64,000 bases of DNA from Amphiscolops sp. MND2022. Lineage: Eukaryota. Shown here piece after piece: positions 1-29,366 of the stretch (position 1 is its first letter; each line of letters starts with the position of its first letter). The stretch lies in assembly GCA_964187785.1 (NCBI GenBank), contig OZ076409.1:30630001-30694000 (forward strand), in the 5' to 3' direction. Both the position numbers and the translations under genes were made by a program. Below the pieces are notes generated by a model, which saw only the letters and a list, made by a program, of their open reading frames with translations, made no database searches and had not been told where the DNA came from.

Positions 1-1848
1 TCCACCTCAATTCTCAACTCAAATTCACACTCATAATTTTCCTCAACAAGGCTCTTCTAATACACAACACACTAATACATGCATTTTCAAACACCAACTC
101 CACCATCACCTCCTGAAATACAAACTTCAACTTATACTCCAGCTCAAAGTAATCCAGTACAAAATGTACAAACTAGTTTAAATATTAACACTATTCATTC
201 AAACCCACCTTTCAATTACACAACTTCTAGACATCTTTCTAGACCTCCGTTGCAACCCATATTAACTAATCCATTATCATACAATGTTACAAGCACAAAC
301 TTGAGTCATACACAACAATCTTCGACAAACAATAACCGACCCAATTCCTTAAATACTTTTCCTCCTCCACAAACGTCTAATACAATCACACCTATAATAC
401 AAAACTCACAATTCCAAATACCAAACCCTCCTTCAACAAATATTAGAACTAATCCCCACTTTCATAATACACCTACCACCTCTTTTACAAAAATTTCAAA
501 TGTTCCTACATACACTACAGTACCACCAACTACAACATCTCAAAGTACCATTTCACAACCGACATATATAAACTCTTCTACTTCAATATGAGAACCTTTA
601 AAACCTTTTGATGGCTTAGATCATACTTATATACCTGAAGAATTTTTACAACATATTGAAGCACGTGTCACGATTTTCTTAGGATTACAACCAACTTCTG
701 AACATGAATATAAATTCTAGCACGCCCGTCGCATGGCTTTTATACAATGTTCCTTAACAGGCACGGCTCTTAGTTGGTACATTCGTTTAAATGATACTTA
801 TAAACAAGATTGGCACGCTTTCGTACAAGCTTCCAAAAAACAATTCTCGTCTCAAAAGAACGCTTACTATGCTCAAGTTGAAGCCCTTAACCTCTCAAAA
901 AAAGACAATGAAACGGTACGTCATTTTGCACTTAAAGTTCAACAGCTGGTTGAAAAAGGCAGGTGTAATGAGAATGCATCTACCATCAATCTCAAATGTA
1001 ATGAAATGTTTACAAAAGGACTCCCAAAAAACCTCAAAGACTTTGCAAGCAAAAGACAAGTAAAACACACTTCTACTGTCTTAGAAGCTTCTATTCCTTT
1101 TCATACATTAGTAAATTTTGTTGATGCTGAAGATATTGCAAATGACAAAATTAGAACACATGATCTTGCACTTGAAGTCAATAACATTACGAAACAATTA
1201 CACACCCAAATTCTTGAACCTTCATCACAAGAACAACTTGTGTTTACCCAACCAAAAGACCCAAATAACAAAAATAAAACTTGCATATAAAAAATATTGT
1301 TCATATTGTCACAGAACAAATCACTCCATCTCTGCTTGTTTCAAAAAAAAACGAGAGGATGAAGACAAACGAGATTCATAAGCTCGATCAAAGTCTCCAC
1401 AAAAATCATTTGTACAGTACTTCCGTTCCCCTTCTAATGAAAGAACAAAACATTATGATAATCGATATAGAAGTCGAAGTATCTCACGTAACAACTCTCA
1501 CAACAAGACCTATTCACAAAATTGATACCGTTCTACATCTAGAGATAGATTTAGCTATGACAAAAGTACTACTCCTCCACAATACTCTAGATCACGATAT
1601 GATACTTATAAACGCGATCCACGGTCTTATCGCTCTCCATCCAGATCTTCGTATAGATCTCCTTATAGACACAACTCTCGCCCTAGATATAGATCACGCT
1701 CCTATTAAAGAGACAATAATTTTACAAAATACACAAATTCATACAGACCACCCTTTAGACCAAGAGATTCTAGATTTTCTAGATCCCGTTCACACTCCAA
1801 TTCTAGAAACAAATCAAATCGATACAACCACAAGACCAATTTGAACCT
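1..1848 (+). pseudogene. gag: gag remnant: Pro/Ser/Thr-rich N-terminus, retrotransposon gag core, CCHC knuckle, Arg/Ser-rich region
   Basis: SLTGTALSWY core (733-1290), YCSYCHRTNHSISAC knuckle near 1295-1340, in-frame stops and frameshifts. Confidence 0.85.
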
Positions 1849-4740
1849 ATGAAATTTGAAGTACACATGTATCACCCAACGGCAATGGCAAATGCTGTTA
1901 CATCTACAAGTTGGTTTCATACTCTATATGTTCATACACCATCAAGTATAACAAAAAGAGATAACCCATCCAGACTTGAAATTGCATTCCTTTTAGATAT
2001 CGGTGCTTTCATCTCTGTGTTAAGTTACCCAGCATACATAACTCTTACAAAACTCTTAGATATCAGACCAAATCATACTTCTGACATTGGACTAAATCAC
2101 ACTTCAAAAACTTTAACTGTTGCAAATCAAACCGAAGTCCCTATTTTACATTATGCCAATAAAATTTTAAACACCACTACTGACGATAATTCTCGTTACG
2201 TTTCAGTACCTTTAGCAGTAGCTGATATCAAATACAATATCCTTGGTACACCCTTCTTTGAAGACAAAATACAGAATATAAACATACAAGATTTTACTCT
2301 AGAAATTAAATACCAATCGAAAACACACCCAAGTTATGCAAAATTCACAATCTCCTATCTAAAGACTACCCATCTTTTTCATACATTTACAAAATCAACT
2401 CTAAGACTCAAATACGTTCAAAACCCAAGTCTTCAAAAATTGCACACTTTCCAGTAAAAAAATATCATAATCTTCATTTTACAACCACACCACAAAATCA
2501 CTTCTTTCCTTCAGTACCACACACCTATTTTGCTACCAAATTTCGTACAAGTTTCAATTTTATTGAAGTATTCACAGATAACAAGCCAGACATTTGTGCA
2601 ACTATTATTCAGAGCACCTCCAAACATGTTGCAACATTACCTACAGGACATTTTGGATATATCGAAGTTCCAATTACAAATGAAAAACCTAAATTTTTCC
2701 AAATCAACGATATTAACACTTTAATACATAATGTTACTCATACATACCATCCTGAAATAACTGAACCAGTTCCACAAACCAATTATATTATACACTATGA
2801 TGATCCTACAACTCCCCCTCCTCAATTTTCATTACATCAAGTTTATTTGACACATTCTGACATACCATATCAAACTTCACCTTTATATAACGTCCAACCT
2901 ACTTCTCACACTTCTGAAAAACGCAATTTTCATTCTTTACCATATACTTCTGAAAATCTGAAATTCATCAACAATTTTAATTTCCAAGTCTCTGACCTTA
3001 CAGACACTGAGTACATTACCCTTTGGAATATGTTACCTAAATACAAAACATGTTATGCCACTCATAAGAACGATGTTGGTAAAATATCGACTCCCTTTCG
3101 TATTAGACTTAAACCCAATGCTCAACTTACGACACAACGTCTTTCTAAAGTCCCTATTCACTATAGAGACAAACTTAATGCACTTTCTAAAGAATTAGAA
3201 AAATGTAACATTATAAAACAAATTGGTTTTTCTCCACAAGACAAACCAGTCTATGGTACAACTTATTTAAATCCTCCCATCATAATCCCCAAAGGAGACA
3301 CAATAAAATTTGTATTAGACGCTCGCCACCTTAACTCAAATACAGAACAATCTGATGAATCTTGGCCTATTGAACCTCTCACTCCACAATTAGCAAGAGG
3401 AAACAAAAAGTACAAATCTGCAATTGATCATATGTACGCCTATGCACATACACCCCCTGATGAAGACACTAGTAAACCTACCAGTTTCTCCTCAGGAGAT
3501 AAACTCTTTGCTTTCATAAAAAGTTTCTATGGTCTTAAAGGACTTCCAAGTTTTTTTTAACAAAACAAATGTCTACTTTCTTTAAAACTCTTATTGAACA
3601 AGGTTTTGCCCTTGTCTACATTGACGATATCTTGCTTTTATCTGACTCTGAAGAACACATGTTCCAACTCGTCGAACAATTACACGTTATCAGTACAAAA
3701 AACAATCTTAAACTAGCCCCTGAAAAATCCTTTTTCATGCTTTTTAAAGACAATTTTCTTGGACATGAAATTGGTTACAATACAATTAAACCAATTCACT
3801 CAAAAATCGCAGCTATTCAAAAAATTCCTTCTCCTACTGGCAAAGTTGCTTTAATGAGTTTCATTGGCGCACTCAACTTTTACACCAAATTTATTGAAAA
3901 ACTACATATTAACCTTAAACCGTTTTACGATCTTTTACATGAGAACACTCCATGGAAATGGACAGATGAACATGAACGTCTTTTTCATAAACTAAAACTG
4001 TCTCTCACTTCTGAAACAGAACTTACAATACCAAATACAAAACACCAATTTTTATCACAGTTGATGCTTCCTTTATTGGATTAGGCGCTGTCCACTTCCA
4101 GTTAAATGACCATAACAAAATGAAAGTTGTATCGTACAACTCTCGTATACTCAACCCACAAGAACAAAAACTTTCAACGCTCGACCGAGAACTTCTTGGT
4201 ATAGTACACGCTCTTCAAATTTATGAATTTCTTAACATTGGTTCTCCCCATCCAATACATATTTATACTGATCGCAAACCTCTCTTACATTGTTTCACAA
4301 AAAAGGGTAACCTTAGTCCTCATTTCTATAGAGCTCAAATGCAATTAACCAAAATTTTCAAAATCAGAATAATCCACACTCCTGGAAAAAACCTTTCTGT
4401 TGCTGACATGTTAAGCCGATCTTTTACAAAAGCTGAATTACAACTAAACCAATTGAAACACAAACAACTTCCACCACTAATTGATTTTGCACTCTTACAA
4501 AACGGCACTCTTAAACATGTACATTACTTAATTAAACATGAAGAAATCTTACCTCACCAAAAACATGACTCTCACCCAATTGTTGCTGATTATGGTACAG
4601 ACCAATTTCCTATTCGTATTAACGATAAAGGAAACGACATTGTTGTCAAACCTTTACATTTTTCTCATTTAAATCTGTAACTCCTTTTCAAACGAAATTC
4701 AAAACACCCATTAAAAAGAACAACAAAACCCTTCATCAAC
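1849..4740 (+). pseudogene. pol: pol remnant: aspartic protease, reverse transcriptase, RNase H; no integrase
   Basis: LLDIGA (LLDSGA in D), VYIDDILL, DRELLGIV/IYTD/VADMLSR motifs across frameshifted ORFs 1849-2457, 2847-3560, 3569-4084, 4120-4680. Confidence 0.92.
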
Positions 4741-6535: not shown

Positions 6536-6852
6536 GTCATTGTCTTCAGAAGAGGAACTCGTGAAAGACACGAGGCAAGATCAAAAGATGGAGAAGTGAA
6601 GAGATGAAGTGGAAAAAGAAATTGAAAAAATGAGGGAACTCACAGCGATTGAAATACACAACCGGAATGGAAGATGCCGGAACAGAAGGAATATGAGATG
6701 TGTTTACCTAGATTTTGAGGAAGTTTTGATGAGAAACCAAAGGTCGATTCATTCTTGGTCGAGAATGATTGTTGACTTATTGAGTTTTGATAAATGTATA
6801 GGAGTTTTGGTGATACGATAAAATGAATTGAAGACAGTTTTCTTGTGGGAAG

Positions 6853-8742
6853 TGTGTTGACCGTGATTTAGACGTAAATCATTCGGTTCAACTGCTCCGG
6901 GTCTAAAACACGTATTCTCTAAGTCTTCATCATCGGGATCGTGGTGTGCGTTGTAGGACGGTTTTTCTGCTAGAGTGTCTATCTTGGAGGCTAGGTTCTC
7001 TATCATTTTCAAAATCTCGCGCTGTCCAACTTCCGTGTCCTTAAATCTTTTGCTGACGGACTTTTCTATCTTTTCGGATAACTCATTGAAGTCCTTGTCA
7101 GACAAGCAAGGGGTATTCTCAGTCCTCGTGCTGGAGGACTCAGGTTCGTCTATTGAATTCACTGGGGAAGTCTCGCCTAGCTTTCCTTTTCGAGCTCCTT
7201 TCGGGCATCTTGTTCAAGTTTAAGTTCTCAATTTTCTTTAGAAGAAGTTTAAGTAGAATCTTAAGCAAAGAAATTTGAAGTTTTGAAACTTTCAATTATT
7301 TTCAACAAAAGACAATTGCTTGCGATAAACGACAAAATTTGACTAAAAATGGCCTCTTGGTCCCATCATATTTATACCTTCCGATAGAGGAAGCAAGGAA
7401 AAGACACGCACATACTTCACACTTCGTTCAGCCCGGCGTCCATCCGAGGCAGGGAAACCGGAAATTCAGTTCCGCTTAGTCGAACTCAGGCTTTCAGTTT
7501 GTTCATGCTTCCCGGGGAAAGCAAGCGTCCACTTCCGGCCTGAGTTGCGACTTCGCTTTCCTTCCTCTCCAATCTCCCGCCTCTTCGAGACGCCGAACTG
7601 AACAACTAGCAAAACACACGCTGTGACTCATCAAATGAAGTTAACAAACTGCACTAAATTTGGGAAGAAACGATGACAGTCAAATTCCTTTTACAGATAT
7701 TCTCTAATTAAAATAAATTAGCAACGAAATGAGAGAAATTAAATGGAAAACGTATGATAAACTGCAAAAGGGAGAGTAGAATCTTTTCTACGGTGTATTT
7801 GGTGATGTTTTAAATAAAACGGCAAAGCCTGGTCCCAGGCCATGGTCCTGGACGGACAAATTGGTTCAACAAAATACAGTGATTATAAACAGTGCACAGC
7901 ATCAGAGACATTATTTTATGGAATAATAAATGCAATTAAACGGTAACGTGTTTAGAAAATGGTATATGCATGCAATTAACCCTTGGTTTGCATTTTGACA
8001 TTGAGCCTTTGGCTCAGGCCACGGTTCAGGCTTATTTACTGATTAGACGCCATTTACATGTAAAAGTACATTGTATGTAATATTCCAATCAACAATATTA
8101 TTTAGGATCATTAGTGATAGCTATTAGAGTTATTTCGAAACAAAGTTACATATTAGCATCGACAATTTCTAATTTTACGGACAGTTCGCTGTATTTTCAT
8201 TCTCAGGCCGCGTCTCAGGCCGCGGTCTAAAATATTGCAATGAATTGGCGCGGGAATCTCAATTATTGGTATATATACAAAACTGCACTGTCGATGAAGC
8301 ACTGCATTAGCCATTAGTTTGTATACATGTATTCACTGTAAGGGAATGCTTGTGTATTGGTTTACAAATCTCAGGCCGCCTGCCAGGCCACCGCTTTAGT
8401 GAGCGCATTTGAGGCCGGCCGCCAGGCCGCAGTTCCGTTCAAGAATTGATTGACTGCTTGTCAGGTTGAGTGTTTTACGTAGTATTGATATTAGCACTAT
8501 ATTATTAACATTATTAACTGCACTTTAGCTCCGTTATTCGTAAGTACGTATTTAAATAAGTGTACATTAATATAGTAATATTAATATATATTTATTTATT
8601 TAATTGTTTCAAATTTAGCGCCTCTGTTTCTAATTGTCCCTTTGTTGTTTCTTTCTTGTTCTTTTCTCTCTTTTCCCAATTTATTCTTTGAAGACTGGGT
8701 TACACACGTTGCAGTACTCACAGCTTATGCGGGGCTGTGACA
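6853..8742 (-). repeat. 3' LTR of element B (1890 bp)
   Basis: TGTGTTGACC...CTGTGACA, near-identical to 20450-22338, adjacent to PPT. Confidence 0.96.
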
Positions 8743-9217
8743 GTCCTCGGCTTCTTTGCCCAGTTCCCTCTGGAAGAAGAAATTGGGAAATGGATCGGAT
8801 CGGGGTGTCGAACAAGGTGGGTAAGTCATCTCTCATTGAGTCATAAGAGCGCCAAGTGGAAATGCTGGACCAACTACTGCCTGACCAGTATCCTTCGGAG
8901 CTGCTCTCGGTCTCGCTGACCGGGCTTATAAATGCGTCGTCAGGTATGACCGGGCTTATAAATGCGTCGTCAGGTATGACCGGGTTTTCAGTCGTGAAGC
9001 CTTCATTTATCATCTGTGGTAATTGGCTGTCGTGTACCAAGACGATGTGCTGGTCTTCGGTTTTAATGATTTCGTAAATAGTAGGACAGCGTGCAGGATT
9101 AATTAGCTGATAATTAGGCGGCGGTGTACCTGGCCTTTGATTGGGTTGCTGCTGTTCATCTCTGTCGAGAATAAAAACATTTTCGTTTATTTGGCTGCTT
9201 GAGTTTGCGTGATTCAT
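8681..9217 (-). CDS. Putative accessory sense ORF (178 aa) crossing the PPT into the 3' LTR
   Basis: ATG-initiated open frame, in-frame 30-bp duplication, TATATA ~125 bp upstream; no recognised domain. Confidence 0.45.
   Translation of the reverse strand: MNHANSSSQINENVFILDRDEQQQPNQRPGTPPPNYQLINPARCPTIYEIIKTEDQHIVLVHDSQLPQMINEGFTTENPVIPDDAFISPVIPDDAFISPVSETESSSEGYWSGSSWSSISTWRSYDSMRDDLPTLFDTPIRSISQFLLPEGTGQRSRGLSQPRISCEYCNVCNPVFKE
8743..8761 (-). promoter_or_regulatory. Polypurine tract of element B
   Basis: Minus strand GGGCAAAGAAGCCGAGGAC abuts the 3' LTR. Confidence 0.7.
8917..8984. repeat. 30-bp tandem duplication (2.3 copies)
   Basis: TGACCGGGCTTATAAATGCGTCGTCAGGTA x2 plus TGACCGGG; encodes PVIPDDAFIS x2 on the minus strand. 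Confidence 0.95.
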
Positions 9218-9435
9218 TGTAGTGTCAACTAAGCGTCAGTCAATTTTGTAGTACAACTGATTTGCTCCGCTTGGAAGATTCGTTCACACGGTTCGTGTTA
9301 ACTCCATGAATTGTTCAGCTGGCAGACTGAACAACTCTCCTTATATAGTAGATAACTTTTGATATTAGTAATTCCTTGTTTTACGCCACATCTTCTTTGA
9401 TTTTATGCTGATTGCTATTTTTAGATTGTTTGAGA

Positions 9436-12400
9436 ATGAGTTCGACTGAAGAGGATAATGTCCTTCAGCGTCAAAGTCGAGGAGCTGGTTTTATGGAGAG
9501 TGAGTTGGAGTCTGAGTCTGTCGGTGGGTCCATCATTCGAGGTGAAAAAGAAGTTACTGGTAGTGGTGATCAGGATGAGAATGAGGAGGCTGGTGTCAGT
9601 GCTGCTGGTTCAAAAATACGTGGGTTCGGCGAGAAAGATGTGGATGATGACGAGGCCGAGTGTCCCGAGGAGACTGGATCTGTTCATTCGGATAGCAGTG
9701 ATGCCCGTCATGAACTTGACTATCTTGCCAATAAGAAAGGTAAACTTTTCTAGAAATTGATAGGTGGCCAGCCTTTTCTAGGTGTCTGCGAACGCGTTCT
9801 TTTGATCTCTACTTTGTATTTAGTGTCTGATGATGAATCTGATGACGATTATCGCCCTTCCGCTAGTACCCAATCTCAGGGCAAGAAGAAGCGTCGTGCC
9901 AGTCGTGTGCCTTCGGTCGGGAGTGTGGGGCCTTCCAGACGGGTAAAGTTGTCCGATATAATCTCTGGGACTATGCCTGTGCCGCCCACACTGCGTGACA
10001 GTTCTGGGAACGAGTGTGAGTCACCTGTCATCAGCGCATCCAAGACTCTTGAAAGTAGGTATTCTTTCTTCTTTCTTTGTATGGCGTTAGGAATTTTATG
10101 GGTGTGTGGTTTTGTGCTTTTGTCCATATTATTCCTCTGGTTGTGCACTAATTGTGATGTTATAGTCGTTGATCCTGGGTCTCAGGCAGTACCGGCGACA
10201 TCGGAGGAGAGTGATGTCTTTGTCTGTGATCCGTCGCAGGAAACCCCGGCTGCAGAGAGTGAGGCTGTGTCCGTGTTACCTGATTCTGGGGCTCGTTTTG
10301 AGAGGAGACAGCACTATCGTCCAGCAGTTGGCCTGGAGCCGTCCACCATCCACAATGAATGGGAAAAAGGTATGTGTATTTGGTTTGTGTTCTTCCATAC
10401 TCTGGTACTGGTGGTTTTATTGTTGGATGTTATCTGTCATTCTCCTGTGAGGAGGGGGGGTTTCTTCATTTGTTAGTTGTATGGTAAGGTTTTCTCTTCT
10501 GTTTAGCTGGATTAGAGTCTGTGCCTTCTGGGTCTCCAGTCATTATGTCTGCCGCACAGTGTGTGATGTTCGCTCGATGTGCTGCCCGGAGCGAACGGAC
10601 TGAAGCCATGAAAGAGACGAAGAGTTTGTCTAAACGTAAGTTGTTGTCTGTAACTCTTTTTATCTGCTATTCTATGAACTGTTTTGTCTGTGTTTTCCGT
10701 TTGGTCTGTCCTTTTACTGCTGTTTGTTTTCGGGTTTGATTTGATTTCCAGTTGTTGTGGAGAGTGTTGTGTTTTAGAATTCGAGGAGTTGTCACGGCTG
10801 TTGAAGGCAAAAGGCATTGATGCCAATGATCCTAGTCGTGTGCTAGATCCCATTGAAGTACGGAAGGAAAAACTGTTAGCCCGCGACGAGGAAAAGGCGA
10901 AACGGCAGTCTGAGCGTCATGTCCTGACAAAGGCTATGTGCCATCATGCCCTCCCGCGTTTGTTCGTGAGTCGCCGCAGTGACAAGAATCCCAACGGGTT
11001 CAACTGTGCCATCTGCCGCAAGGATGTCTCCTTTCTGTCCCGGGGTCCTCGGGGTATTTGGCGGCATTTCAAATGCAAGGGGCATTACTTGAAAGACCGG
11101 AGATATCGTTACGACCATGAGGACGTTATCTTCACAGAAGATTTTGACGCGATTCCCGTGGGTGAGATATCTGCAGAGTTGCGGGAAGAAATTGAGAAGA
11201 CGCCCCCTGTTACGCTCGGCAAAATGAACCCTTTCCTTGAGGACGAGGTGGATGCACTGGTTGGCGTCCCGTCCAATGTGCCACCTTCGACGCTTGTGGG
11301 TTGTCTTCTGGAGCTTCTTAGGAGTGGCGGTTCGCAAGTGTTCTTACGCCGCTTGTGGAACCAGTTTAGAACCACTCTGCCGGTCGAGAGCCCGTACGCT
11401 TCTGTTACCTGGAGCAAAACTGAGACTCTTGTGGTGTTGGTGCAGACACTGTATCCACGTGTGCTGAAACGTGTGAGGACGTGGCTGGGAGACAGTCCCT
11501 TTAGCCTGGTACTACAGCAGTCCTGTTCCAGTGTGAGATGTTTTGTTCGGTGTTGCACAGATGACTCGACCCGTGAGATTTGTATCGCTGATGAAGATCA
11601 GGCTGCTGTTTCCTGTGAATCCGAAATTCAATGCTTGTCTCGTGCCTTATCGTTGGTGTCAACTCGTCGTGGACCCGTCTCTGTTGAAAATTGTTCTCCT
11701 GTTCTTTTCAACGCCTACGTCGATTGGTGTCGAGCAGTCGGGCGGCCTGTGCCTCTAGTTGCTGTGTCTTTTGATGGTGATCTGTTGCGGCGTATCGTGA
11801 ACGAGGCTGGTCTGTCATGTGTGGGATCAGTGGATGCCTTCGCTGTGGTTGAGTATCTTGTGCAGCGTTTGAAGAGGGTCCGCCATCAGGCCTGGCTCCT
11901 GAATCTGCCCCAATTCCGTCTCTGCCTGGATAGTGGTGTAGTGCCATTTGCTGTTCTCTGTGATGTTCTGGAGGAGTTGTTGTCAAATTGGTCGGATATA
12001 AAGATTTGTCTTGCTAATGATATGCTGCTGATGAAGAAGTCCATTAATGTGGTGGATCTTGATTCTTTGCTGTGTTCGGACCGATTGGGACTGCCGCGTC
12101 TCGCCTTGTTGCATGTGGTATTGCTGTGTTTCCGGACTAACTGTGCGAAGCTATTTGATCCATCAGTTAGGGATTATGCCTGCAGGAACTTCGTTGACTT
12201 CTGTTTTTTCTACTGGAGTCTGCTGAGTAAGGTCAAGAAGGTGGGTCAGTTGCCTTCAATTGATTGTTGGTCTGAGTATATCGACCAGCCCTTGACAAAT
12301 TGGCCCAACGTTGCTGCTGGTGAGTGTCTCCAAGGAGAGCCTAGTATCCTAAAGGCTCTGCGTGGGTTTGACGTTACGCCTCGACGAGCTTTCTTGAAGG

Positions 12401-13194
12401 AGTGTCAGACTTTCTTGCTGGAGTTGCTCAAACAGCTCAGGGCATCCAGTTACGCCAGTTCTCGGGTCGCCCGCTCTCTCAGTTGCCTGAGTGTGGACAT
12501 GTTGCTCGGCGGAGATGCAGGTTACGTTGTAGAGTTGTTTCAGGACTTGGTCGCCTGTTTCCAGGAAGCTGGTTATTTGGGTAGTCTGGATCGAGAAGCT
12601 GCTGTAAACGAGTTCAAGTCGTTGGTGGTGGATCTTCGGCAGTTATCGACTGATGCCTCTCAGATCAAAAACGTATTTGTTTATTTGGAGGATAATGCCA
12701 GTTATCAGTGCCGCGCCCATGTGAAACAAGTAGTTCGTCTTGTGCGTGTTATTGTTGGGCCTGCTCCTGCTGCCATGCCTGTTGTGGACATCTCTATGAG
12801 TGGAACAAATCTGCCGCCTAGTGTTATCCGTTCTGGGCTGAGTGCTGTTCAGTCATTTGTTTTGCATCCAAAGTTTGTCGTTGGTGAGTTGCTGACCGTA
12901 GGGTGTCTGGAGGAGTTAAAAGTCAACCTGCCTGTTGGGCATCGGTTCCTGGCACGGACTGAGTTTGATCCTTGGACTGATGTATGCCGCCATTCTCGTG
13001 CTGGGATTTTCGATGACTTGCTCCAGTGTTATACGGCGTATTATACAGGGCAGGTTGAGGAGTGGAGGGCCCGTGTGACAACTGTTGGTGCTTCTACCAG
13101 TGCTGTTCCTGGGGGCAGTCAAAGTGGAGCTGGTTCTTCGTCAAAAGGACCGAAGAGTAGTACCCGGGCAACGCGGTCTGGTAAATCGACCTGA
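9436..13194 (+). CDS. Five-exon antisense gene inside element B; 1094-aa BED-like zinc-finger protein resembling an inactivated hAT transposase (exons 9436-9739, 9824-10054, 10166-10369, 10507-10635, 10778-13194)
   Basis: Four GT-AG phase-1 introns join into one 3285-nt frame; CAIC...RHFKCKGH finger; SKTETL...LGDSPFSLVLQQS resembles the hAT RTK...FSLxxDES segment. Confidence 0.8.
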
Positions 13195-13548
13195 AGACAT
13201 GATGATTTTGAACTTTTGCTGATGAATTGATTGACTCCTTGTATATGGACTGTTTATTTATTTGTTGCTTGTATTAGCGGTTCCGCAAGTCGGTTCCTTT
13301 GTAGTGAATCAAAATACACAGAATGATATGCTCTGGTATTATAGGGCAAAGAAAAAAATCAAAAAAAACAGAGAGGAGAAGTTGAGGCAGCTCAGTGCTT
13401 TCCTGGGCTAATTAATTCAGTATTTAGCCTCCGAATTGTTTTCATCCAAGTCGTAGAGTATAGTAGTTTGAGTGAAAGCCATTGTGAAATGAAGAGATTT
13501 TGAGATTCAGTTTGTAGGGATGCTGTCTAGGCCAGTGCCTGGGGCTAA

Positions 13549-16500
13549 TTAATTTTCTGATCTCGGGCTGCCGTCTGGGCCGAGGTCTGCTAAAACTTGA
13601 AATTCTGGGTCGTCGTCCAGGCTACCTGTTGATTGTGCCGGGCTTGTTGAGTTAGCTGTTAAGGCATTGTAATAGGCGTAATCGGGCTTCCAATTTGACG
13701 TCGGGTTTCTTCGAAGATTGTATTGGGATTTTCGGGGGGATTTAGGTGTATCTGTGTTTTCTTCGGGTATATCATCGAGGTCGACTGTTGGGTCCTGTGC
13801 CTGATCACTTGGGTAGGTTGGGGTAGGTTCGGGTTCGTATGCCAGGTTAGGGCTTGGGGGTTCAGGGTGGGTGGGGGCGTTGTCTGTTACTGGGGTTGGC
13901 AGTATGATCTCGGGTTCGGGCGATTGTTTATTTTCGGGTTGGGGTGGGCATTCGTTGTATAGCTCTTCCCACGCCATTGCGAAGAGGTCGTCGTGTTGAA
14001 TTGTTACTTCAGTATCCTGCTGGTAATCTTTGGGTGGAACTGTGATGTCAGGCAGTTTTTGGCTGCTTGCAAAGGGGCGGAGTCTGATTCTGTGCAGGAT
14101 CTGGGTGAAATTGGTTTGTAGCTTGCGTATAAGGTAATTATTGTTAGGCAGAGTTTTGACCACGATATATGGTCCCGTCCAAAGGTATTCTCTAAACGGC
14201 AGTTTCGTCGCTTGGCTATGCGCCTTTGGATGTAAAGCATAGCAGTAGTCGTTTACTACTAAGGGGTGAGCTGATGCTTTCCGGTCATAATAACGCTTAT
14301 GTCGGACGTAGGCTTGCATCAGGGCTTGTTGGCTCTGGTTGAGGATTTCTTGTGTTTGCTTCAACACTCCCTCGGCTATTTCGTGGTTGATTGTGGAGGA
14401 CGCCTGTGGCTTGATGCCATATTTGAGGTCAAGTACGTTGTATGGTACTCTTCCATGGAAAACTCGGCTGGGTTCACAGCCCAGTGACGTGTGGTATGAG
14501 GTATTATAATTTAATACCGCCATTGGTAAAAATTGGTGCCACATCGTTCGCCTCTCTCCTGTCATGATCTTTAGGCTTTCTTTGAGGGAGGCGTGCGTCC
14601 TTTCCAGAATGCCAATCGTCTGGGCATGTTTGGTAGTGGCATGTTTCAGTTGGATTCCAAGGACAGCTGTTGTTTGTTGCATTGCCTCCGATATGAACTG
14701 GGATCCTTTGTCCGTTATTATCGTCGTGGGAAGGTAACAGTGTCTTGTTATGATATCTGTGAGGACCCGCGTGACAGTCTTGGTATCGACCCTGGCGACA
14801 CTATAAGCGAAGAGGTATCGGGAGAATACATCCATCGCTGTAATGACTGCGGTATATCCTCCTGATGGGTCGTCGAACGGGACGATGTCCATTTGTAGCG
14901 CGTCTTCTGGGCCCAGTGCTACTTTAGACATATCGATCAGTGGAGGTGTGATGTTGGCATTTGGGGTCCTTTTCGTCTGCGCACATTCTGGACACTGTGT
15001 AATGTGCGTGGCTATGCGGGCGGCTAGTCCTGGGAAGTAATATTTTTCGCGGCACTGCTGGATGGTTTTGGCTATACCTGGGTGTTTCCCGAATTTGCCA
15101 TGGTGGTGTTGTATGAATTCATCGACCAATTGTTGGGGGAGCAATACTTGCAGATATTTGACTTTTCCTGTGTCGCCAAAGTATTGTCTGTACAGGAGCC
15201 CATCTTTGATGATGATGCGGTCGTCCTGAGTGAGGTACTTGGCTGCTCTGGGGTCATCATTCAGTAGTTGGGTGTCATATGGTTCTTTTAGGATTTTCAG
15301 TTTGAGGTTTCTAAGGACGGGGTCCTGGTCTTGGTGTGGTCTCAAACTGCGTGGGAAACTAGTGTCATTGTGTAGTAGACGCCGCTGTTCCTGTTCTGGG
15401 TCTTGGATGTTGTTGCAGACCAGGGGTAGGTTCTCAGGTTGAGAGATGGTTTGGTCAGTTTCGTTCATTGGATCAGTGCTTTTTTTATATGGTGAGTAGA
15501 TCTGTTTGCGGGCTTGTTGTTTCCGCTCCCAGATGTCCTCTTTGGTCTCTGAGTCGTCCTCTGGTAAAAAATAGAATTGATCTTCCTCATGGATGTCGGA
15601 AGATTGAATGTTCACCTGGATCGGCGTAGTTTGTATATCTTCTCTGATTTGGAGAAGGACTTTTTCTTTGGGGCTGATGTCGAGACGGGAGAGGAAATCA
15701 GCTGCAGTATTCATTCTTCCTGGCACATGGGCGATCTTGAAGTGAAATTGTAATACGAAATCGCAGGCATTCCAGAGGGAGGGGGGAATCATCTTGGTTT
15801 GAAAAAACCTGGTGACCGATTTATTGTCAGTTAAGACAATACTTGGTTTGGAGGAACCCCACAAGATGTGGCTGTATTCCATAAATGCAAAATAGATGGC
15901 CAAGAATTCTTTGGCGTAGATCGACATTTTCAGCTGGGACGGTGAAAAGGTCTTTGATCCAAATGCCACTGGAGCGTAAGTCTTCTTGGTGGAGGTGATC
16001 TTTTGTTCGGGGTCCTCTTCCGTCATCAAGGCATATCCGGCGTTCTTGAAGCTTGCGTCTGTCATTAGCACGTACTGGCGGTTTGGCAGTGGCTGTTTGA
16101 GCCAAAGGCCGCATGCGTTGTCCAGTGACTTGTTGATGGCTTCAAAATTGGAAATGAGGTCTTGGTCGATCTTTACCGGTTTGTCTGATTTGATCAGTTC
16201 ATGGAACGGGGCGATTTTCTCTGACAATCGGGGAATGTAATTTCTGTAGTAGTTTACAAACCCGATGTATCTTTGAAGTCCCTTCTTCGTTCGGGGGAAT
16301 TTGATGGTTTGGAGATGTTTCTGGATCTTGTGGCTCTGGGGTGCCACTCCTGCTGGGGAAATCGTTCGCCCAAGGAATTCGACTTCCTTGGCGCCGAACT
16401 GACATTTGGCCATGGTGAGCCGGAGTCCTGCAGCGCGGATGCATTGGAAAACCTCTCTCAAGTTGTTCTTCAAGTCCTCGGGAGTGTTGGTGGCGATTCC

Positions 16501-19329
16501 AATGTCATCTACGTACTGAGCGCATTTGTCCGCCTTTATGGCTTTGTCGAGATATTCCCTCATGAAACTGGAGAAGGACGAGAGTGAGCGGCTCAGGCCC
16601 TGGGCTAACCTGAGGTACGCAAATGTCCTGCTGGCAAAGTTGAAGGCTAGGAGTTGCACTGATTTCTGGTCTGCCATTTGCAGCACGTGGTAAGCTTGTG
16701 AACAATCAAGCTTACAGAACAACTTTTTGCCAGCGAGGTGTTGCGCTGCGTCGGTCAATGTGCTCACGGGATGATTGTTGTTAATGTAATCATCGGAGAT
16801 TAGGTTGTTGATCTTCCTGAGGTCGACCAGGAGACGCAGGCGGCCATTTGGTTTCCGTTGGGCGAAGATGGGACTAGCATACTTGCTGAACGGGAGGGTG
16901 GTGATGATCCCGAAGTAATGCATTAGTGCCAACTCGACTGTCAGGTCCTCTTTCAGGTTAATGGGGCACGGCAAGCTCTGTGAATAGACGGGGTCGTCTG
17001 TTTTTGGGGTGAGCTTGATTTTAAAGTCGTGGTTGATTCCGATGTCTAGTCGGTGCCTCGCGAAAATGTCATTGAACTCTATCAGGATTTCCTCAATGTC
17101 TTTTTGGTCATTTTCTGTTAACTGGGAATCATCCCATTTAAAGTTTTTGAGGAATGCCTCTCGGTCTTCAGTATTGTTATTGGGGTCCAGTTTCTGGATC
17201 TCTTCCAGTTCCTTGATTTCCCTCAGTATTCTGCTTTGAATCGGCGTGTGGGTACTAGGGTCGCCAGGATTGTCCGGTGTAGGGAACCAAAAGTTTTGGT
17301 TGTTTGATGGTTTTTCTGAGGTTTTCAGAAGCTCATTGATGTACACTAGCGCATCTTCGGAGTCGTCTTCGGTCAGCACTTTAAGTGCTGCTGTGTTCAG
17401 TGGTTTGAGTTCTTTGGCCTCTTCCGGGGACAGGATTTTGAACTCGGCGATTGTGGTGTTGCGCTTAATAGTGAAAGGTGTAGGGGTGGTGTTGGTGACT
17501 CTGATGTCGATTTTCCTGTTGGAAGCTGTTGAGATGGAGCTGGCTACTACTAGGGGGTCACCACTACAATGGTTGGTAGCTGGGTTTATGACACCGGTTG
17601 TGTCAACGTTTGATGGTGTGTCTGTGGAGCCCGTGATTGTTTGTGTCGTTTCCGGGGGAATCGTGAGTGGATTCTTGATCTGTACTTTATACAATTTCCT
17701 GTTACGTGTATATTCATCAGTTTCGATTGAATATGTGAGGTGGGGGAAGTGTAACAGGCCTTGGCTCACGTCCAGAATTGCGCTATTGTTTTTAAGGAAT
17801 GTAAGGCCAAGTATCGGGCCAGTCAGGCGTTTGGCCACGATAAAGGTTTCTTTGAAATTCCAGTCTCCGATCTCGAATTGGAGGATGATTGTTTTGGTAG
17901 GTGTCTCAATGTCGCCATTTGCGACTTGAAGTTTGAAGGGGGGAGGTTCCAATTCTTTGACTACATCTTTGGGGGACATTTGAATGATTTTGTTGTAATC
18001 TGTTTCAGAGATGCAGTTTACGAGAGCGCCAGAATCGATGAGGGCGTCCAGGGTCAAGTCCTGGAAATCCATGGGTGCGAAGAGCATTTTCTTCTTCTTT
18101 TTAAGTGATACCGCTGAGAAGATTGGTATGCACTCTTCTTTGGTGATGGGGTCTCTCGTGAGGAATTCCGCAATCTGGGCCAGGGGGTAGGACTGGGGTT
18201 CGTCCTGGGATGGTGAGTCGTTTACTACACCTGGGGGGAATCCAGATTGCGTGTTAGTTGCGGCAGAGGTGAGGGGTCGAGGGTCCTCGACTTCGTTTTC
18301 GGTCTGCCTGCTTGAGAGAGAGGGGTAGACGTTGGTTTCTCTGGTTGGGCTTTCGTTATTCCTCGGATATTCTGCAGTCTGCTGGGGGAGGTAGGACCTG
18401 GGAGTGTCCTGTTGTGGTGCGCCGTTTGCGGCACCTGAGGGCGATCCAGACTGCATGTTGGTTGCGTCAGCTATGATGTGTCGATCAAAGTCGATGTCAT
18501 CTTCTAGCTGGCTATTGAGGATGGGATGTGAGACCTGGGTCTCGCTGAGAATTGGTGGCTCCAAGAGTAGAGATCTCTTGATGCGTTTTGTTGTGGGTTT
18601 GGAGGTGATTGTCTCCGGATTGTGTGTATTTTGGGCTAGGTCCACGGCTTCGCTCGTGGTCCTGTGGGCGATGTCTTTGTGTTGGTGGCTATCTGGTGCC
18701 ACGTCCATTGTTGGGGATCGGATGATACCGGCTCTAATAGGGTTTGTTGACTGTTCCCTTGATGGAGAATGGGGAGCAGTGGCATGTGATCCTTGGTTTT
18801 TGAGTATGGGTCTGAGATTGTCTTGGGGGAGATCAACTATGATCTCTGTCACATGTTCCACGTCCTGGTCGTAATTGGGGATGGGTTGGACGGTTTTGGA
18901 CCTGTGGCGTGGCTCGGTGGAAATGTTCATCCCTGTTTTTCTGATATACTCTTCAAATGGCGTGCATTCCTGGTGTTTGAAGGTTAGTGTTGTTTTGTCG
19001 TATAGTTGAGGGTTATAGTAGGGGTCGCAGCTGAAGTCCGAGTCGTGGAAGTATGTTTCAGGGGTAGTGCTTTCTGGTAGGGGTCGTTTGGGGGTATTGT
19101 ACTCAGTCGGGTTGTCGAGGTACCACTGGGGGTAGTCCTTCTTTGTGATGTTTCGACGGTTGTATTTATGGAGCTTATGGATCTGCCATCTTCGCTGCCA
19201 GTCGAGAGATGGTTCTTCATTTCGCTCAGTGTTTCCTTCTTGGTCGTATGAATTTGGGGGTTCAGATGTTGTGTACTGTCGCGTTTCGACAGTCTCCCCA
19301 AATCGAAGATGTGGCGATTCTAGTTTTTT
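13549..19329 (-). CDS. pol: Pol polyprotein (protease, RT, RNase H, integrase), intact; frame is open upstream of ATG 18930 to the slippery site
   Basis: LIDSGA, YVDD, TDAS/KEFLAI/TDNKS/ADFLSR, H-H-C-C finger (HPG...CPEC), DDE core, WTGPY. Confidence 0.97.
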   Translation of the reverse strand, partial: KKLESPHLRFGETVETRQYTTSEPPNSYDQEGNTERNEEPSLDWQRRWQIHKLHKYNRRNITKKDYPQWYLDNPTEYNTPKRPLPESTTPETYFHDSDFSCDPYYNPQLYDKTTLTFKHQECTPFEEYIRKTGMNISTEPRHRSKTVQPIPNYDQDVEHVTEIIVDLPQDNLRPILKNQGSHATAPHSPSREQSTNPIRAGIIRSPTMDVAPDSHQHKDIAHRTTSEAVDLAQNTHNPETITSKPTTKRIKRSLLLEPPILSETQVSHPILNSQLEDDIDFDRHIIADATNMQSGSPSGAANGAPQQDTPRSYLPQQTAEYPRNNESPTRETNVYPSLSSRQTENEVEDPRPLTSAATNTQSGFPPGVVNDSPSQDEPQSYPLAQIAEFLTRDPITKEECIPIFSAVSLKKKKKMLFAPMDFQDLTLDALIDSGALVNCISETDYNKIIQMSPKDVVKELEPPPFKLQVANGDIETPTKTIILQFEIGDWNFKETFIVAKRLTGPILGLTFLKNNSAILDVSQGLLHFPHLTYSIETDEYTRNRKLYKVQIKNPLTIPPETTQTITGSTDTPSNVDTTGVINPATNHCSGDPLVVASSISTASNRKIDIRVTNTTPTPFTIKRNTTIAEFKILSPEEAKELKPLNTAALKVLTEDDSEDALVYINELLKTSEKPSNNQNFWFPTPDNPGDPSTHTPIQSRILREIKELEEIQKLDPNNNTEDREAFLKNFKWDDSQLTENDQKDIEEILIEFNDIFARHRLDIGINHDFKIKLTPKTDDPVYSQSLPCPINLKEDLTVELALMHYFGIITTLPFSKYASPIFAQRKPNGRLRLLVDLRKINNLISDDYINNNHPVSTLTDAAQHLAGKKLFCKLDCSQAYHVLQMADQKSVQLLAFNFASRTFAYLRLAQGLSRSLSSFSSFMREYLDKAIKADKCAQYVDDIGIATNTPEDLKNNLREVFQCIRAAGLRLTMAKCQFGAKEVEFLGRTISPAGVAPQSHKIQKHLQTIKFPRTKKGLQRYIGFVNYYRNYIPRLSEKIAPFHELIKSDKPVKIDQDLISNFEAINKSLDNACGLWLKQPLPNRQYVLMTDASFKNAGYALMTEEDPEQKITSTKKTYAPVAFGSKTFSPSQLKMSIYAKEFLAIYFAFMEYSHILWGSSKPSIVLTDNKSVTRFFQTKMIPPSLWNACDFVLQFHFKIAHVPGRMNTAADFLSRLDISPKEKVLLQIREDIQTTPIQVNIQSSDIHEEDQFYFLPEDDSETKEDIWERKQQARKQIYSPYKKSTDPMNETDQTISQPENLPLVCNNIQDPEQEQRRLLHNDTSFPRSLRPHQDQDPVLRNLKLKILKEPYDTQLLNDDPRAAKYLTQDDRIIIKDGLLYRQYFGDTGKVKYLQVLLPQQLVDEFIQHHHGKFGKHPGIAKTIQQCREKYYFPGLAARIATHITQCPECAQTKRTPNANITPPLIDMSKVALGPEDALQMDIVPFDDPSGGYTAVITAMDVFSRYLFAYSVARVDTKTVTRVLTDIITRHCYLPTTIITDKGSQFISEAMQQTTAVLGIQLKHATTKHAQTIGILERTHASLKESLKIMTGERRTMWHQFLPMAVLNYNTSYHTSLGCEPSRVFHGRVPYNVLDLKYGIKPQASSTINHEIAEGVLKQTQEILNQSQQALMQAYVRHKRYYDRKASAHPLVVNDYCYALHPKAHSQATKLPFREYLWTGPYIVVKTLPNNNYLIRKLQTNFTQILHRIRLRPFASSQKLPDITVPPKDYQQDTEVTIQHDDLFAMAWEELYNECPPQPENKQSPEPEIILPTPVTDNAPTHPEPPSPNLAYEPEPTPTYPSDQAQDPTVDLDDIPEENTDTPKSPRKSQYNLRRNPTSNWKPDYAYYNALTANSTSPAQSTGSLDDDPEFQVLADLGPDGSPRSEN
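19323..19329 (-). promoter_or_regulatory. Predicted -1 ribosomal frameshift heptamer A AAA AAC
   Basis: TCA AAA AAC TAG ends gag; the -1 frame reads without a stop into the pol ORF; hairpin ACTGTCG/CGACAGT downstream. Confidence 0.85.
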
Positions 19330-20435
19330 GAGTGGCTGAGGTTCTGACTTAAGTTTTGGGGTTGAGTGGTCTGCGGGAGCATGGGTGGGTAGCCCGTTTG
19401 GCTATGTGTTTGGTTGTCGTATGTTTGTTGGTGGGTTGATGGGTTGTCCGAGGGGTATTGACCTTGGGCATTTTGTGGCAACGGGATGTTATTCGGGGGA
19501 GTTGTCTTAGGTGTCTTCCACCATTGAGGTCTGTTTGCCCAGTTGGCTCCGGAATAACACTCTTGGGTCGTATGGCTTTTCTTGCCACAGGTTTCACATG
19601 GATTTGTGATTTTGGTTGGTACCCGGTTGCCTCGGTTGCGGGCTTCCCGAGCTGTTTTCCGGCAGTTCTTTATTACATGGCCTGAGTGGCCACATCCAAA
19701 GCACGGGCCTGCCGGTTTGGGTGGATTGGTGGTTTGTTGTGGGATGTCTTGTACATCGATTTGATGTACACCTGTTATGGTGGTGTCGCTTGGGGCCAGG
19801 AGTCCGTTTAACTCCATTTCACGTTCCAGGTGTTGGACCATGAGGTCGTACGACTCTGTCTCTAGTCTTGCCTGGTTGAGGACTCGTTTTAAATGGGCTG
19901 GCATTTTTGCATAGAATGAGGTTTCTATGAACTTTGGGGCGTCGTCGCCATATGCCTCCTGTGCCAATTTTTGATACTCCAAGAAATCTTGGAAGGTTTG
20001 GCGAGTAGGGTCAAAGTAAAGTTGTTCCCACTTACATCTTGCTGTAGCTATCGATTGTGGGCGTACATACCGTCTGCGAAAAGTGGCGATGATGTCATCT
20101 AGGCTGGCGCGGTTTGCGTCTGTCATGTTGCGATACGTTTGGAGCGCATCGCCTCTCAGGAGGGAGTGGAAGTAGTGGATTTGCTCCTCTTCTGAGATGT
20201 TTGGGTAGACTTTGAGGCTCGTCATAAACAGATCTTCGAAATGCTCGAACTTGTCATTGCGGCCATCGAACGTTGGCATGGTCGTTGAGAGTGCCTTTGG
20301 TAGTCTGGGCAATCCCGCATTCTGTTGTGTGGCATTTTTTAAGGATTCGAGTAGTTTGTCTACGATATCGTCTGGATATCTCATGTTGGGCGGCGGTAGA
20401 CTTGATGACCGGGCGGGTATATCCTGGGTTGTGGT

Positions 20436-20449
20436 AACTCATGTCACCA
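20436..20449 (-). promoter_or_regulatory. Primer-binding site of element B (possibly tRNA-Leu-like)
   Basis: TGGTGACATGAGTT directly after the LTR end; copy at 22665-22678 reads TGGTGACAGGAGTT. Confidence 0.75.
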
Positions 20450-22338
20450 TGTGTTGACCGTGATTTAGACGTAAATCATTCGGTTCAACTGCTCCGGGTC
20501 TAAAACACGTATTCTCTAAGTCTTCATCATCGGGATCGTGGTGTGCGTTGTAGGACGGTTTTTCTGCTAGAGTGTCTATCTTGGAGGCTAGGTTCTCTAT
20601 CATTTTCAAAATCTCGCGCTGTCCAACTTCCGTGTCCTTAATTCTTTTGCTGACGGACTTTTCTATCTTTTCGGATAACTCATTGAAGTCCTTGTCAGAC
20701 AAGCAAGGGGTATTCTCAGTCCTCGTGCTGGAGGACTCAGGTTCGTCTATTGAATTCACTGGGGAATGTCGCCTAGCTTTCCTTTTCGAGCTCCTTTCGG
20801 GCATCTTGTTCAAGTTTAAGTTCTCAATTTTTTTTAGAAGAAGTTTAAGTAGAATCTTAAGCAAAGAAATTTGAAGTTTTGAAACTTTCAATTATTTTCA
20901 ACAAAAGACAATTGCTTGCGATGAACGACAAAATTTGACTAAAAATGGCCTCTTGGTCCCATCATATTTATACCTTCCGATAGAGGAAGCAAGGAAAAGA
21001 CACGCACATACTTCACACTTCGTTCAGCCCGGCGTCCATCCGAGGCAGGGAAACCGGAAATTCAGTTCCGCTTAGTCGAACTCAGGCTTTCAGTTTGTTC
21101 ATGCTTCCCGGGGAAAGCAAGCGTCCACTTCCGGCCTGAGTTGCGACTTCGCTTTCCTTCCTCTCCAATCTCCCGCCTCTTCGAGACGCCGAACTGAACA
21201 ACTAGCAAAACACACGCTGTGACTCATCAAATGAAGTTAACAAACTGCACTAAATTTGGGAAGAAACGATGACAGTCAAATTCCTTTTACAGATATTCTC
21301 TAATTAAAATAAATTAGCAACGAAATGAGAGAAATTACATGGAAAACGTATGATAATTTGCAAAAGGGAGAGTAGAATCTTTTCTACGGTGTATTTGGTG
21401 ATGTTTTAAATAAAACGGCAAAGCCTGGTCCCAGGCCATGGTCCTGGACGGACAAATTGGTTCAACAAAATACAGTGATTATAAACAGTGCACAGCATCA
21501 GAGACATTATTTTATGGAATAATAAATGCAATTAAACGGTAACGTGTTTAGAAAATGGTATATGCATGCAATTAACCCTTGGTTTGCATTTTGACATTGA
21601 GCCTTTGGCTCAGGCCACGGTTCAGGCTTATTTACTGATTAGACGCCATTTACATGTAAAAGTACATTGTATGTAATATTCCAATCAACAATATTATTTA
21701 GGATCATCAGTGATAGCTATTAGAGTTATTTCGAAACAAAGTTACATATTAGCATCGACACTTTCTAATTTTACGGACAGTTCGCTGTATTTTCATTCTC
21801 AGGCCGCGTCTCAGGCCGCGGTCTAAAATATTGCAATGAATTGGCGCGGGAATCTCAATTATTGGTATATATACAAAACTGCACTGTCGATGAAGCACTG
21901 CATTAGCCATTAGTTTGTATACATGTATTCACTGTAAGGGAATGCTTGTGTATTGGTTTACAAATCTCAGGCCGCCTGCCAGGCCACCGCTTTAGTGAGC
22001 GCATTTGAGGCCGGCCACCAGGCCGCAGTTCCGTTCAAGAATTGATTGACTGCTTGTCAGGTTGAGTGTTTTACGTAGTATTGATATTAGCACTATATTA
22101 TTAACATTATTAACTGCACTTTAGCTCCGTTATTCGTAAGTACGTTTTTAAATAAGTGTACATTAATATAGTAATATTAATATATATTTATTTATTTAAT
22201 TGTTTCAAATTTAGCGCCTCTGTTTCTAATTGTCCCTTTGTTGTTTCTTTCTTGTTCTTTTCTCTCTTTTCCCAATTTATTCTTTGAAGACTGGGTTACA
22301 CACGTTGCAGTACTCACAGCTTATGCGGGGCTGTGACA
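20450..22338 (-). repeat. 5' LTR of element B
   Basis: Near-identical to 6853-8742, bordered by the PBS and the GGAAG TSD. Confidence 0.96.
20965..20972 (-). promoter_or_regulatory. TATA box in the LTR
   Basis: TATAAATA ~160 bp upstream of Gag ATG 20804; present in all three LTR copies. Confidence 0.6.
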
Positions 22339-22479
22339 GGAAGTAATTTTAACCTTTCAGAAATTTGATTTTGGAGTATTCAGCAAGGAAAAGCGTTGCC
22401 GAGATTTGCATTAACTGAGGAATTTTCCGCTCTTTTCCGATATTGGTTTTGTTACGAAAAGGATTGTGTCTAGAATTGA

Positions 22480-24911: not shown

Positions 24912-25144
24912 AGTAGTATGCGAATTCCCGATCCTGATAATCAAAACCCTAAATTTAAGCATTTTTCAAAAAAATCGATAAAATTGGTGTTTTTTAACTA
25001 TTAAAAAATAAAAAAGTTTTAAGTTCGTAAAACCATTAAAAAATTAATCTTTTTCACAAATTATCAATCAAACCATCTAAAAATCAGCCTTTTTTCACAA
25101 CTAAAAAATTAACAAAATAAAAATCCATGCACAAATTTTTCCAA
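24912..25144 (+). repeat. Left terminal inverted repeat of the Polinton
   Basis: Reverse complement of ~39360-39592 with a few mismatches. Confidence 0.93.
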
Positions 25145-25191
25145 TGGAAAATTCATTGACCAAGATATAATCAGGGAAAAATAACTATTAA

Positions 25192-25605: not shown

Positions 25606-25612
25606 ATCCTAA

Positions 25613-25807: not shown

Positions 25808-25810
25808 TAA

Positions 25811-26839: not shown

Positions 26840-26848
26840 TATATATAA

Positions 26849-27250: not shown

Positions 27251-27299
27251 TTTACAGCCTTGCTGTAAATTAAATATTATTTTTTATGAATAATAAATT

Positions 27300-29190: not shown

Positions 29191-29210
29191 TTATTTAGTA
29201 AAAAATTACT

Positions 29211-29290: not shown

Positions 29291-29366
29291 TACTAAGAAA
29301 ATTACTAAGAAATCAAACCCATTTTTTTGGGTACCGGAGGACACCTTTGCTGTAAATATTTCATTT

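Follow-up and report, generated by a model that had tools for sequence, protein, structure and literature searches.

Host-domesticated dead transposases, amongst them ZBED, DREF, BEAF-32, DAYSLEEPER and the CENP-B homologues, have lost catalysis, kept DNA binding and act as regulators. The gene described here differs from these in that its domesticator is a mobile element, in that it is multi-copy and mobile, and in that its specificity appears to diversify by family. It lies in a 64,000 nt stretch of Amphiscolops sp. MND2022 (GenBank assembly GCA_964187785.1, contig OZ076409.1, positions 30,630,001 to 30,694,000, forward strand; hereafter the window), where a young Ty3/Gypsy long terminal repeat (LTR) retrotransposon carries, antisense to its own gag and pol, a gene whose predicted product has the fold of a hAT transposase and appears to have lost the active site.

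With regard to position, the nearest counterparts are antisense open reading frames (ORFs) described from plant Gypsy elements, namely Grande gene23, RIRE2 and Retand TRP28, which likewise lie between pol and the 3′ LTR, are conserved within lineages and are suspected nuclear regulators; the accessible parts of these accounts give their origin as unknown, without similarity to other transposable elements (PMC7264820, PMC11963269). Here, by contrast, the donor can be identified by fold. The same arrangement, termed aORF-3R, is present at 20 of 20 sampled loci, and the TRP28 domain of the Retand type (PF04195) is absent from the last-exon frame. With regard to recognition, a parallel is VANC of the VANDAL (Mutator-like) elements, an element-encoded protein accompanied by family-specific short motifs repeated in non-coding DNA, with fast repeat turnover and variable introns, as far as the accessible text goes (PMC5735166). 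A family-specific short motif repeated in non-coding DNA was also found in the present element. VANC, which the available portion of another account proposes to come from MAIN-like proteins (PMC13547354), differs in being a DNA-transposon gene with no shared domain, and in that binding and demethylation have been demonstrated for it, binding by the present protein being a prediction. Neither VANC domain, DUF1985 or DUF287, has a Pfam match in the last-exon frame, the part that was scanned. Amongst animal LTR elements, bdelloid ORF3 is similarly a captured accessory enzyme fold (DEDDy exonuclease or GDSL esterase), but one that keeps its catalytic residues, and the accessible part of that study mentions no transposase (PMC5408684). 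No description of a hAT-derived gene within an LTR element was found in the openly accessible literature; most subscription journals and Repbase fall outside this, so that an earlier description is possible.

Compared with hAT transposases proper (Hermes, PDB 4d1q/8edg, and Tip/ZMYM1-like proteins), the antisense protein is alike in fold and in domain order from dimerisation region to C-terminal segment, and in possessing an N-terminal zinc finger with an arginine just before the first histidine. It differs in lacking the DDE triad, the CxxH and RW motifs, terminal inverted repeats (TIRs) and an 8-bp target site duplication (TSD), in adding an acidic N-terminal region (290 aa), an insertion behind the finger and further helices at the C-terminus, and in being borne by an LTR element. 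In its working the gene resembles antisense accessory genes and shares features with VANC, its apparent hAT descent coming without membership in the active family.

The antisense gene is predicted to comprise five exons at 9436–13194 (+), between pol and the 3′ LTR, with four GT–AG introns joining them into a product of 1,094 aa without internal stop. Exon 1 (9436–9739) supplies the ATG and an acidic, serine-rich stretch; exon 2 (9824–10054), which keeps the frame, encodes a basic KKKRR stretch, a possible nuclear signal; exons 3 (10166–10369) and 4 (10507–10635) follow; and exon 5 (10778–13194) holds the entire hAT-like part and a C-terminal tail. All three relatives that were aligned have diverged introns and still keep the ATG, the first three donors and the acceptor of exon 4, the acceptor of exon 3 being clear in one of the three and the donor of exon 4 being kept in both relatives that aligned there. 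The last-exon frame is open from 10678 to 13194 (+; 838 aa stop to stop) and unites the three peptides quoted in a first-pass annotation of this DNA, with WSKTET at 11410 and QQS ending at 11523. The third of these (VKQVVRL...GPAPA, approximately 12721–12771) does lie towards the C-terminus, some 140 codons before the stop; the frame, however, ends at 13194 and not at 13100 as had been given, and the protein is longer than had been supposed, now including the N-terminal 290 aa (19 % acidic, 16 % Ser). A strong donor-like site at around 8822 may mark an untranslated first exon, and a tandem repeat of about 30 bp, in two and a half copies, occupies 8922–8981 between the 3′ LTR and the antisense ATG. 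In distant subfamilies (L101, L103, L107, L123, L127 and L139) the hAT core is divided amongst three or more exon-sized frames, the breaks falling downstream of the WS..E motif and around profile positions 406–440, and in the window clade it forms one exon; such a difference may mean that an antisense gene which passes through reverse transcription has lost or gained introns.

That the frame is not a product of chance follows from the lack of an internal stop in 55 of its 62 own-genome matches (74–100 % identity), in keeping with the earlier claim of an intact frame, and from divergence between subfamilies that is mostly synonymous. Ratios of non-synonymous to synonymous divergence (dN/dS) for the two closest pairs are 0.058 (880 codons) and 0.070 (893 codons), most other pairs being saturated, and the corresponding comparison for pol gives 0.04–0.08. 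Amongst 28 young copies, shared variants number 36 synonymous and 19 non-synonymous (a polymorphism ratio, pN/pS, of 0.17), and private variants 41 and 42, respectively (pN/pS 0.32). An ORF arising fortuitously opposite another gene is ruled out by dN/dS, the longest such opposite frames reaching 101–162 aa.

Five subfamily queries against the source assembly (1.07 Gb) returned 62, 52, 104, 97 and 150 rows, which are unmerged and are not copy numbers, and copies of the antisense gene occur on all 13 large contigs; the family is large and recently active. Across 20 chosen loci that are 25–76 % identical, the gene sits antisense just behind a Gypsy pol (45–98 % identical) in every case; the loci were found through the antisense gene, hence this is the share of gene loci having pol. 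For seven loci of the ME[ST]RGA class the upstream DNA, the only side compared, is 69–91 % like the LTRs of those elements. Trees of reverse transcriptase (RT) and of the antisense protein (20 rows; f1, having no RT, was dropped) agree, with starred support in both, on the deepest split and on two groups, that of the window and e/f/g; the d group is starred in the RT tree only. The earlier suggestion of stable capture by a class I element is thus upheld by fixed position, co-descent with RT and purifying selection, and it is as good as certain that the gene belongs to the element as a stable and functional component. None of the remaining Gypsy elements in the window contains a homologue of it. 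As three proteins (P0031, P0186 and P0190) reach best identities of only 50, 39 and 33 % in this genome, the family probably exists in other genomes too, judging from these sequences. Copies spaced at steps of approximately 13.6–13.8 kb (G000:C10:2574504-2603923 and C149:24162-52913) form tandem arrays, probably with shared LTRs.

No convincing pair of TIRs is present at 8743–13600, where the 25 longest of 100 inverted pairs measure 14–25 nt at 70–93 % identity, the longest being an A/T run; the annotation had likewise reported neither hAT TIRs nor an 8-bp TSD around the gene. A recent independent hAT insertion is ruled out by the missing TIRs, the fixed position and the co-descent. Intact Ac-group hATs do reside in the same genome (L116, L117 and L118), with TIRs, 8-bp TSDs and subterminal repeats of their own, as does one Tip-group copy with frameshifts (L115).

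A structural model of 10960–13101, built from 27 sequences (predicted local distance difference test, pLDDT, 80.7), was compared with 48,161 chains, of which only Hermes exceeds Z 8 (Z 13.0, 395 residues aligned, root mean square deviation (rmsd) 5.0), the next being the ISCth4 transposase at 6.5. Six Hermes entries align at Z 13.0–14.1 over 387–423 residues with rmsd 4.7–5.7, pairing model residues 88–641 with Hermes 99–609, and the ten top Foldseek rows are all Hermes. The model reproduces the hAT layout, in which a helical insertion interrupts the RNase H core and a dimerisation region and a C-terminal hAT segment are also present. A helical region, standing where hATs have their dimerisation domain, occupies 11245–11487 (+), within an alignment to 2bw3 (model 88–640, Hermes 99–609), and has no clear structural match when folded alone. 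The RNase H-like core follows at 11488–11769 (+; model strands 181–187, 191–200, 203–213 and 241–243), then the helical insertion domain at 11770–12699 (+), in which W344 matches the Hermes LDNW, and the C-terminal hAT segment at 12700–12879 (+). Vestiges of hAT motifs, namely FSLxxQ, LxNW and V.S, are retained in the antisense protein.

Several results speak against this kinship. The best Foldseek E-value is 1.7e-3; Pfam has no match for the last-exon frame, and none at E<=1 for 27 members; profile alignments by hhalign are not significant, whether to Tip-group hATs (46–49 proteins, E 0.09–0.12) or to the Ac group (11 own-genome frames, E 0.63); and the nearest ESM neighbours, although hAT-type clusters, score 0.81–0.89, below the 0.9 line, and serve as leads only. 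Moreover, a separate model of the N-terminal 177 aa (pLDDT 81.6) gives no hAT or BED chain among the matches listed, the best, at Z 5.7, being unrelated. A sequence search of the PDB found no match for the antisense protein, scans of JGI metagenomes and IMG/VR found no relative, and a profile search with the N-terminal part for longer proteins that might mark the donor lineage gave nine family members and no ordinary hAT. Since sequence statistics are non-significant throughout, hAT descent rests on the modelled fold and on colinear motif vestiges; with these, the origin proposed in the first-pass annotation holds, and the antisense protein very probably descends from a hAT transposase.

With regard to catalysis, D180, D248 and E572 of Hermes are taken here to be the catalytic residues, and the corresponding sites were mapped from model strands, weak hhalign alignments and spacing from Hermes anchors. 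On this predicted mapping Q186 (11515, +) and N244 (11689, +) occupy the positions of D180 and D248, and E572 corresponds to V608 (12781, +) or D610 (12787, +) by register, a deletion of 6–8 residues following the site. A census of 24 members (the window, 16 database proteins and seven distant loci) shows no Asp at position 186 (Q in seven, R in seven, E in four, K in two and four others), Asp in three at position 187, and G in 20, D in three and N in one at position 244. The RW pair is replaced by P329–F330 in the window and, across the census, by P (14), S (6), D (3) or E (1) at 329, with Arg in none, and by F in 22 of 24 at 330; by eye, no C or H column appears at 258–282, where CxxH would lie, and no invariant acidic residue ends strands 1 or 4. 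Amongst 46 Tip-group control hATs, D, D, E, C, H, R and W are present in 43, 46, 46, 46, 46, 46 and 41, respectively. The literal absence of an ERxFS string from the antisense frame, as noted before, is correct. On the other side, the mapping relies on strands, weak alignments and spacing rather than residue-level superposition, and D610, acidic in 17 of 24 (0/7 distant loci; V608, in the alternative register, is acidic in 5/24), may be a kept third catalytic residue within the close clade; the model has no helix at V608 or D610. The idea of a dead enzyme therefore stands for the first two aspartates, CxxH and RW, and is qualified at the third site; on these sequences the loss of catalysis is nonetheless highly probable.

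In contrast to the core, the zinc ligands C, C, H and H are invariant in all 24 members. The C2H2 finger (Cx2C x16 H x5 H; 11005–11085, +) begins at 10999, with cysteine codons at 11005 and 11014 and histidine codons at 11065 and 11083. The annotation had called it a BED finger: the finger itself is present, but zf-BED of Pfam matches none of 13 family members, and the closest solved finger is that of TUT1 (residues 1–52, Z 4.2, rmsd 1.6, 45 aligned). ESM zf-BED clusters score 0.86–0.88, below the 0.9 line, and a BED-type finger remains likely. At three depths of divergence, identity to the window protein is 0.93/0.73/0.40 for the finger and 0.90/0.75/0.42 for the dimer region, as against 0.66/0.35/0.24 for RNase H and 0.72/0.44/0.26 for the helical domain; Tip-group hATs show the opposite ranking, RNase H (0.46) and the C-terminal segment (0.50) leading the dimer region (0.41) and helical domain (0.30). 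On these comparisons, selection seems to maintain the reading of DNA and self-association.

A candidate target for such reading lies in the LTRs. The motif [CG]AGGC[CT] forms an array at 7836–8428 (+), in the inferred U3 of the 3′ LTR, with pairs 12 bp apart at 8015/8027, 8204/8216, 8372/8384 and 8411/8423 and a single site at 7836 (all +), and the same array recurs in the 5′ LTR at 21432–22024 (+). CAGGCC occurs eight times in the window LTR, where 500 dinucleotide shuffles yield at most three, no GC-rich 6-mer exceeding six in the shuffled sequences; the four pairs appear when one base is relaxed. The array lies 460–1,050 bp upstream of a TATA-like box (7369–7376, -; sequence only) of the inferred sense promoter, and the sites are 310–910 bp inside the LTR, in an enhancer-like part away from the tips. 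Other clades have motifs of their own, in 5–11 copies and often paired 11–12 bp apart, namely GGGACG, GGACGT, ACGGA[AG] and TGACG and, weakly, GGGACT, and the motif follows five finger residues, from 8 to 4 before the first His. These belong to a predicted DNA-reading loop and helix (model R28–R35; 11041–11064, +), in a position that matches R63–R70 of Hermes, and finger classes differ from one another at just those residues that contact bases in the Hermes BED domain, given in the available text as R63–N67 and R70, before H71 (PMC10368747).

Four helix-to-motif rules were fixed beforehand and 40 new loci then read. These advance predictions held in 17 of 22 exact cases (RG[PA]RG 11/11, RGEPE 1/1, KGVRE 1/1, G..E[FI] 4/9) and in four of five near matches, 12 loci having no rule and one no finger. 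The rule that G..E[FI].RH predicts ACGGA[AG], having missed five of nine, was rejected as too loose, and for the KGEPE class CAGTC was given up in favour of the weaker GGGACT, a choice made after the fact. The linkage is broken in two natural swaps, in which helix and motif stay the same between the window and c76a (pol 98 %, LTR 95 %, gene 72 %) and between c50c and c50d (pol 97 %, LTR 92–94 %, gene 65 %); c50a and c50c are 96 % identical in pol, and differ in helix, U3 and motif alike. Exchange of the antisense cassette between elements by recombination is evident in L091–L092 (G000:C6:70992200-71008200) and in L099–L100 versus L109–L110 (pol 97–98 %, gene 65–72 %). In two members of the CAGGCC class, g3 and L166, motifs are missing where the LTR has been lost.

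A number of observations weigh against a link between finger and motif. Finger class varies jointly with LTR and clade (some six classes, each one clade) and U3 adjoins the gene, which confounds the association; the five misses of the G..E[FI] rule carry TGACG, one of them only twice; the KGVRE and RGA.E classes both have TGACG; KGEPE elements hold only 3–6 copies of a weak motif; and L174 places a different helix on an LTR that is 84–89 % like that of c50b. In addition, TGACGT is a common host bZIP site, and host factors could use the LTR motif sites. It is nevertheless somewhat more likely than not that the protein binds the motif of its own LTR.

The history and working of the gene might be sketched as follows. 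A hAT transposon would have been captured by a Gypsy element, its ends and catalytic centre lost, and the gene kept and inherited with the element since. Antisense transcription and splicing would yield a protein that dimerises via its hAT dimerisation region, so that the two fingers of the dimer could read 6-bp motif pairs one helical turn apart in the U3 of its own element, much as subterminal repeats are recognised by the BED domains of hATs. The dead core would serve as a scaffold, the acidic N-terminus would contact transcription or chromatin factors, and the likely outcome would be that elements are activated or shielded from silencing family by family, comparable to the effect of VANC on VANDAL elements. 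Chances are about even that the protein is a self-encoded, sequence-specific LTR regulator, whether activator or anti-silencer, acting family by family. Somewhat more tentative is the fuller proposal that a Gypsy lineage domesticated a whole hAT transposase as a sequence-specific transactivator or anti-silencer, finger and LTR sites having co-diversified into at least six lock-and-key specificities within one genome, so that a recognition system of class II, made up of finger and subterminal-type repeats, would have been transplanted into a class I promoter. Of the roles first suggested, regulation through LTR binding and anti-silencing have thus gained circumstantial support, and integration targeting has gained none.

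A point against this proposal is that the direction of the effect, be it to activate, protect or repress, is unconstrained by the results. Evidence that bears on binding fits equally well a dead hAT-derived protein that binds the LTR and represses, be it to limit itself or keep copy number in check, or as a decoy directed at a host factor. There is a host precedent in the fission-yeast CENP-B homologues, dead transposases that police retrotransposons according to the accessible text (PMC5418596), and self-control strategies of elements have been reviewed (PMC6719617, accessible in part). The family is, however, large and young, selfish copies would be expected to shed a gene that only represses, and the composition of the N-terminal 290 aa is, by general knowledge, more typical of activation or histone-binding regions, such that repression is decidedly unlikely. 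The conserved DNA-binding parts and the basic stretch in exon 2 would also suit a protein acting after reverse transcription, which binds cDNA or host chromatin and aids nuclear entry or steers integration, and nuclear import has been raised for antisense ORFs by Vicient and Casacuberta, in the part of their text accessible here (PMC7264820). Sites well inside the LTR, rather than at its tips, and copies spread over all 13 large contigs make this, too, unlikely.

It is perhaps a little less unlikely that the LTR motifs are host transcription factor sites or arose as a side effect of local duplication, and that the protein acts elsewhere (on host genes or the silencing machinery) or without sequence specificity. 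Agreement between motif and finger tracks ancestry and linkage, several motif pairs lie within short stretches duplicated in tandem (units of 39 bp in c50c and c50d), and L174 and the shared TGACG are counter-cases; against this, CAGGCC pairs persist, with changed number and spacing, in c75b, where the rest of the LTR barely aligns, and the helix is kept in both swaps. Very improbable is the reading that the protein still acts as a nuclease or transposase by means of a rearranged active site, or that it is a non-hAT protein of similar RNase H and helical layout. D or E at 610 in most members, other invariant acidic residues (D22, D46, E94, E155, D405 and E551), non-significant profile matches and a warning from the structure-search tool that helical proteins can reach Z near 13 would all suit it, but strands 1 and 4 end in no invariant acidic residue, conservation is lowest in the RNase H core, Hermes scores far above all other chains with domain order kept, and TIRs are lacking.

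The host element itself spans 6853–22338 (-), approximately 15.5 kb, and has the full complement of a Ty3/Gypsy retrotransposon: TG...CA LTRs, primer-binding site (PBS), polypurine tract (PPT), short TSD, gag, and protease, RT, RNase H and integrase in that order. The 3′ LTR (6853–8742, -; about 1,890 bp) and 5′ LTR (20450–22338, -) are 99.4 % identical, with 11 mismatches over 1,889 aligned bases, and are flanked by a 5-bp TSD, GGAAG, at 6848–6852 and 22339–22343. A putative PBS, starting TGG and recognised from sequence, adjoins the 5′ LTR at 20431–20449 (-), and a purine-rich, PPT-like tract precedes the 3′ LTR at 8743–8765 (-). The gag frame (19320–20438, -) matches DUF1759 (E 1.8e-6) and Retrotrans_gag (E 0.003), and the open pol frame (13549–19401, -; 1,950 aa) gives protease, RVT_1, RT_RNaseH, Integrase_H2C2 and rve of Pfam in order. 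A tandem duplication (20251–22476 and 22480–24707, 99.2 % alike) spans the start of gag, the 5′ LTR and its flank and yields a third LTR at 22679–24569 with the same GGAAG behind it, being either a real event or an assembly artefact.

Elsewhere in the window, a Polinton/Maverick-like element at 24912–39592 has 243-nt inverted ends (95 %), AGTAGT termini and a 6-bp TSD, AGTGGA. It encodes a Pox_A32 ATPase (29370–30386, -), a double-jelly-roll capsid (32702–33430, +), an endonuclease VII (35756–37288, -) and, by eye, a polymerase-B-like frame (34063–35427, -), many of its frames being broken. Three more decayed Gypsy-type elements occupy 1–4700, 57000–64000 and approximately 40000–56000, the first two being about 71 % alike; frames at 51014–55205 have no Pfam match, and 52–58-bp tandem repeats lie at 55542–55811.

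Returning to the antisense gene, its history appears to be one of transposase domestication by a transposon and not by a host, the donor being another class of mobile element. The family provides a natural test set, in which about six finger helices, each with a predicted 6-bp site, are available for the study of specificity, co-evolution and anti-silencing. If the proposed regulation is true, VANC-like, sequence-specific self-protection would extend from plant DNA transposons to retrotransposons, and the family would hold a natural recognition code for hAT-type fingers.

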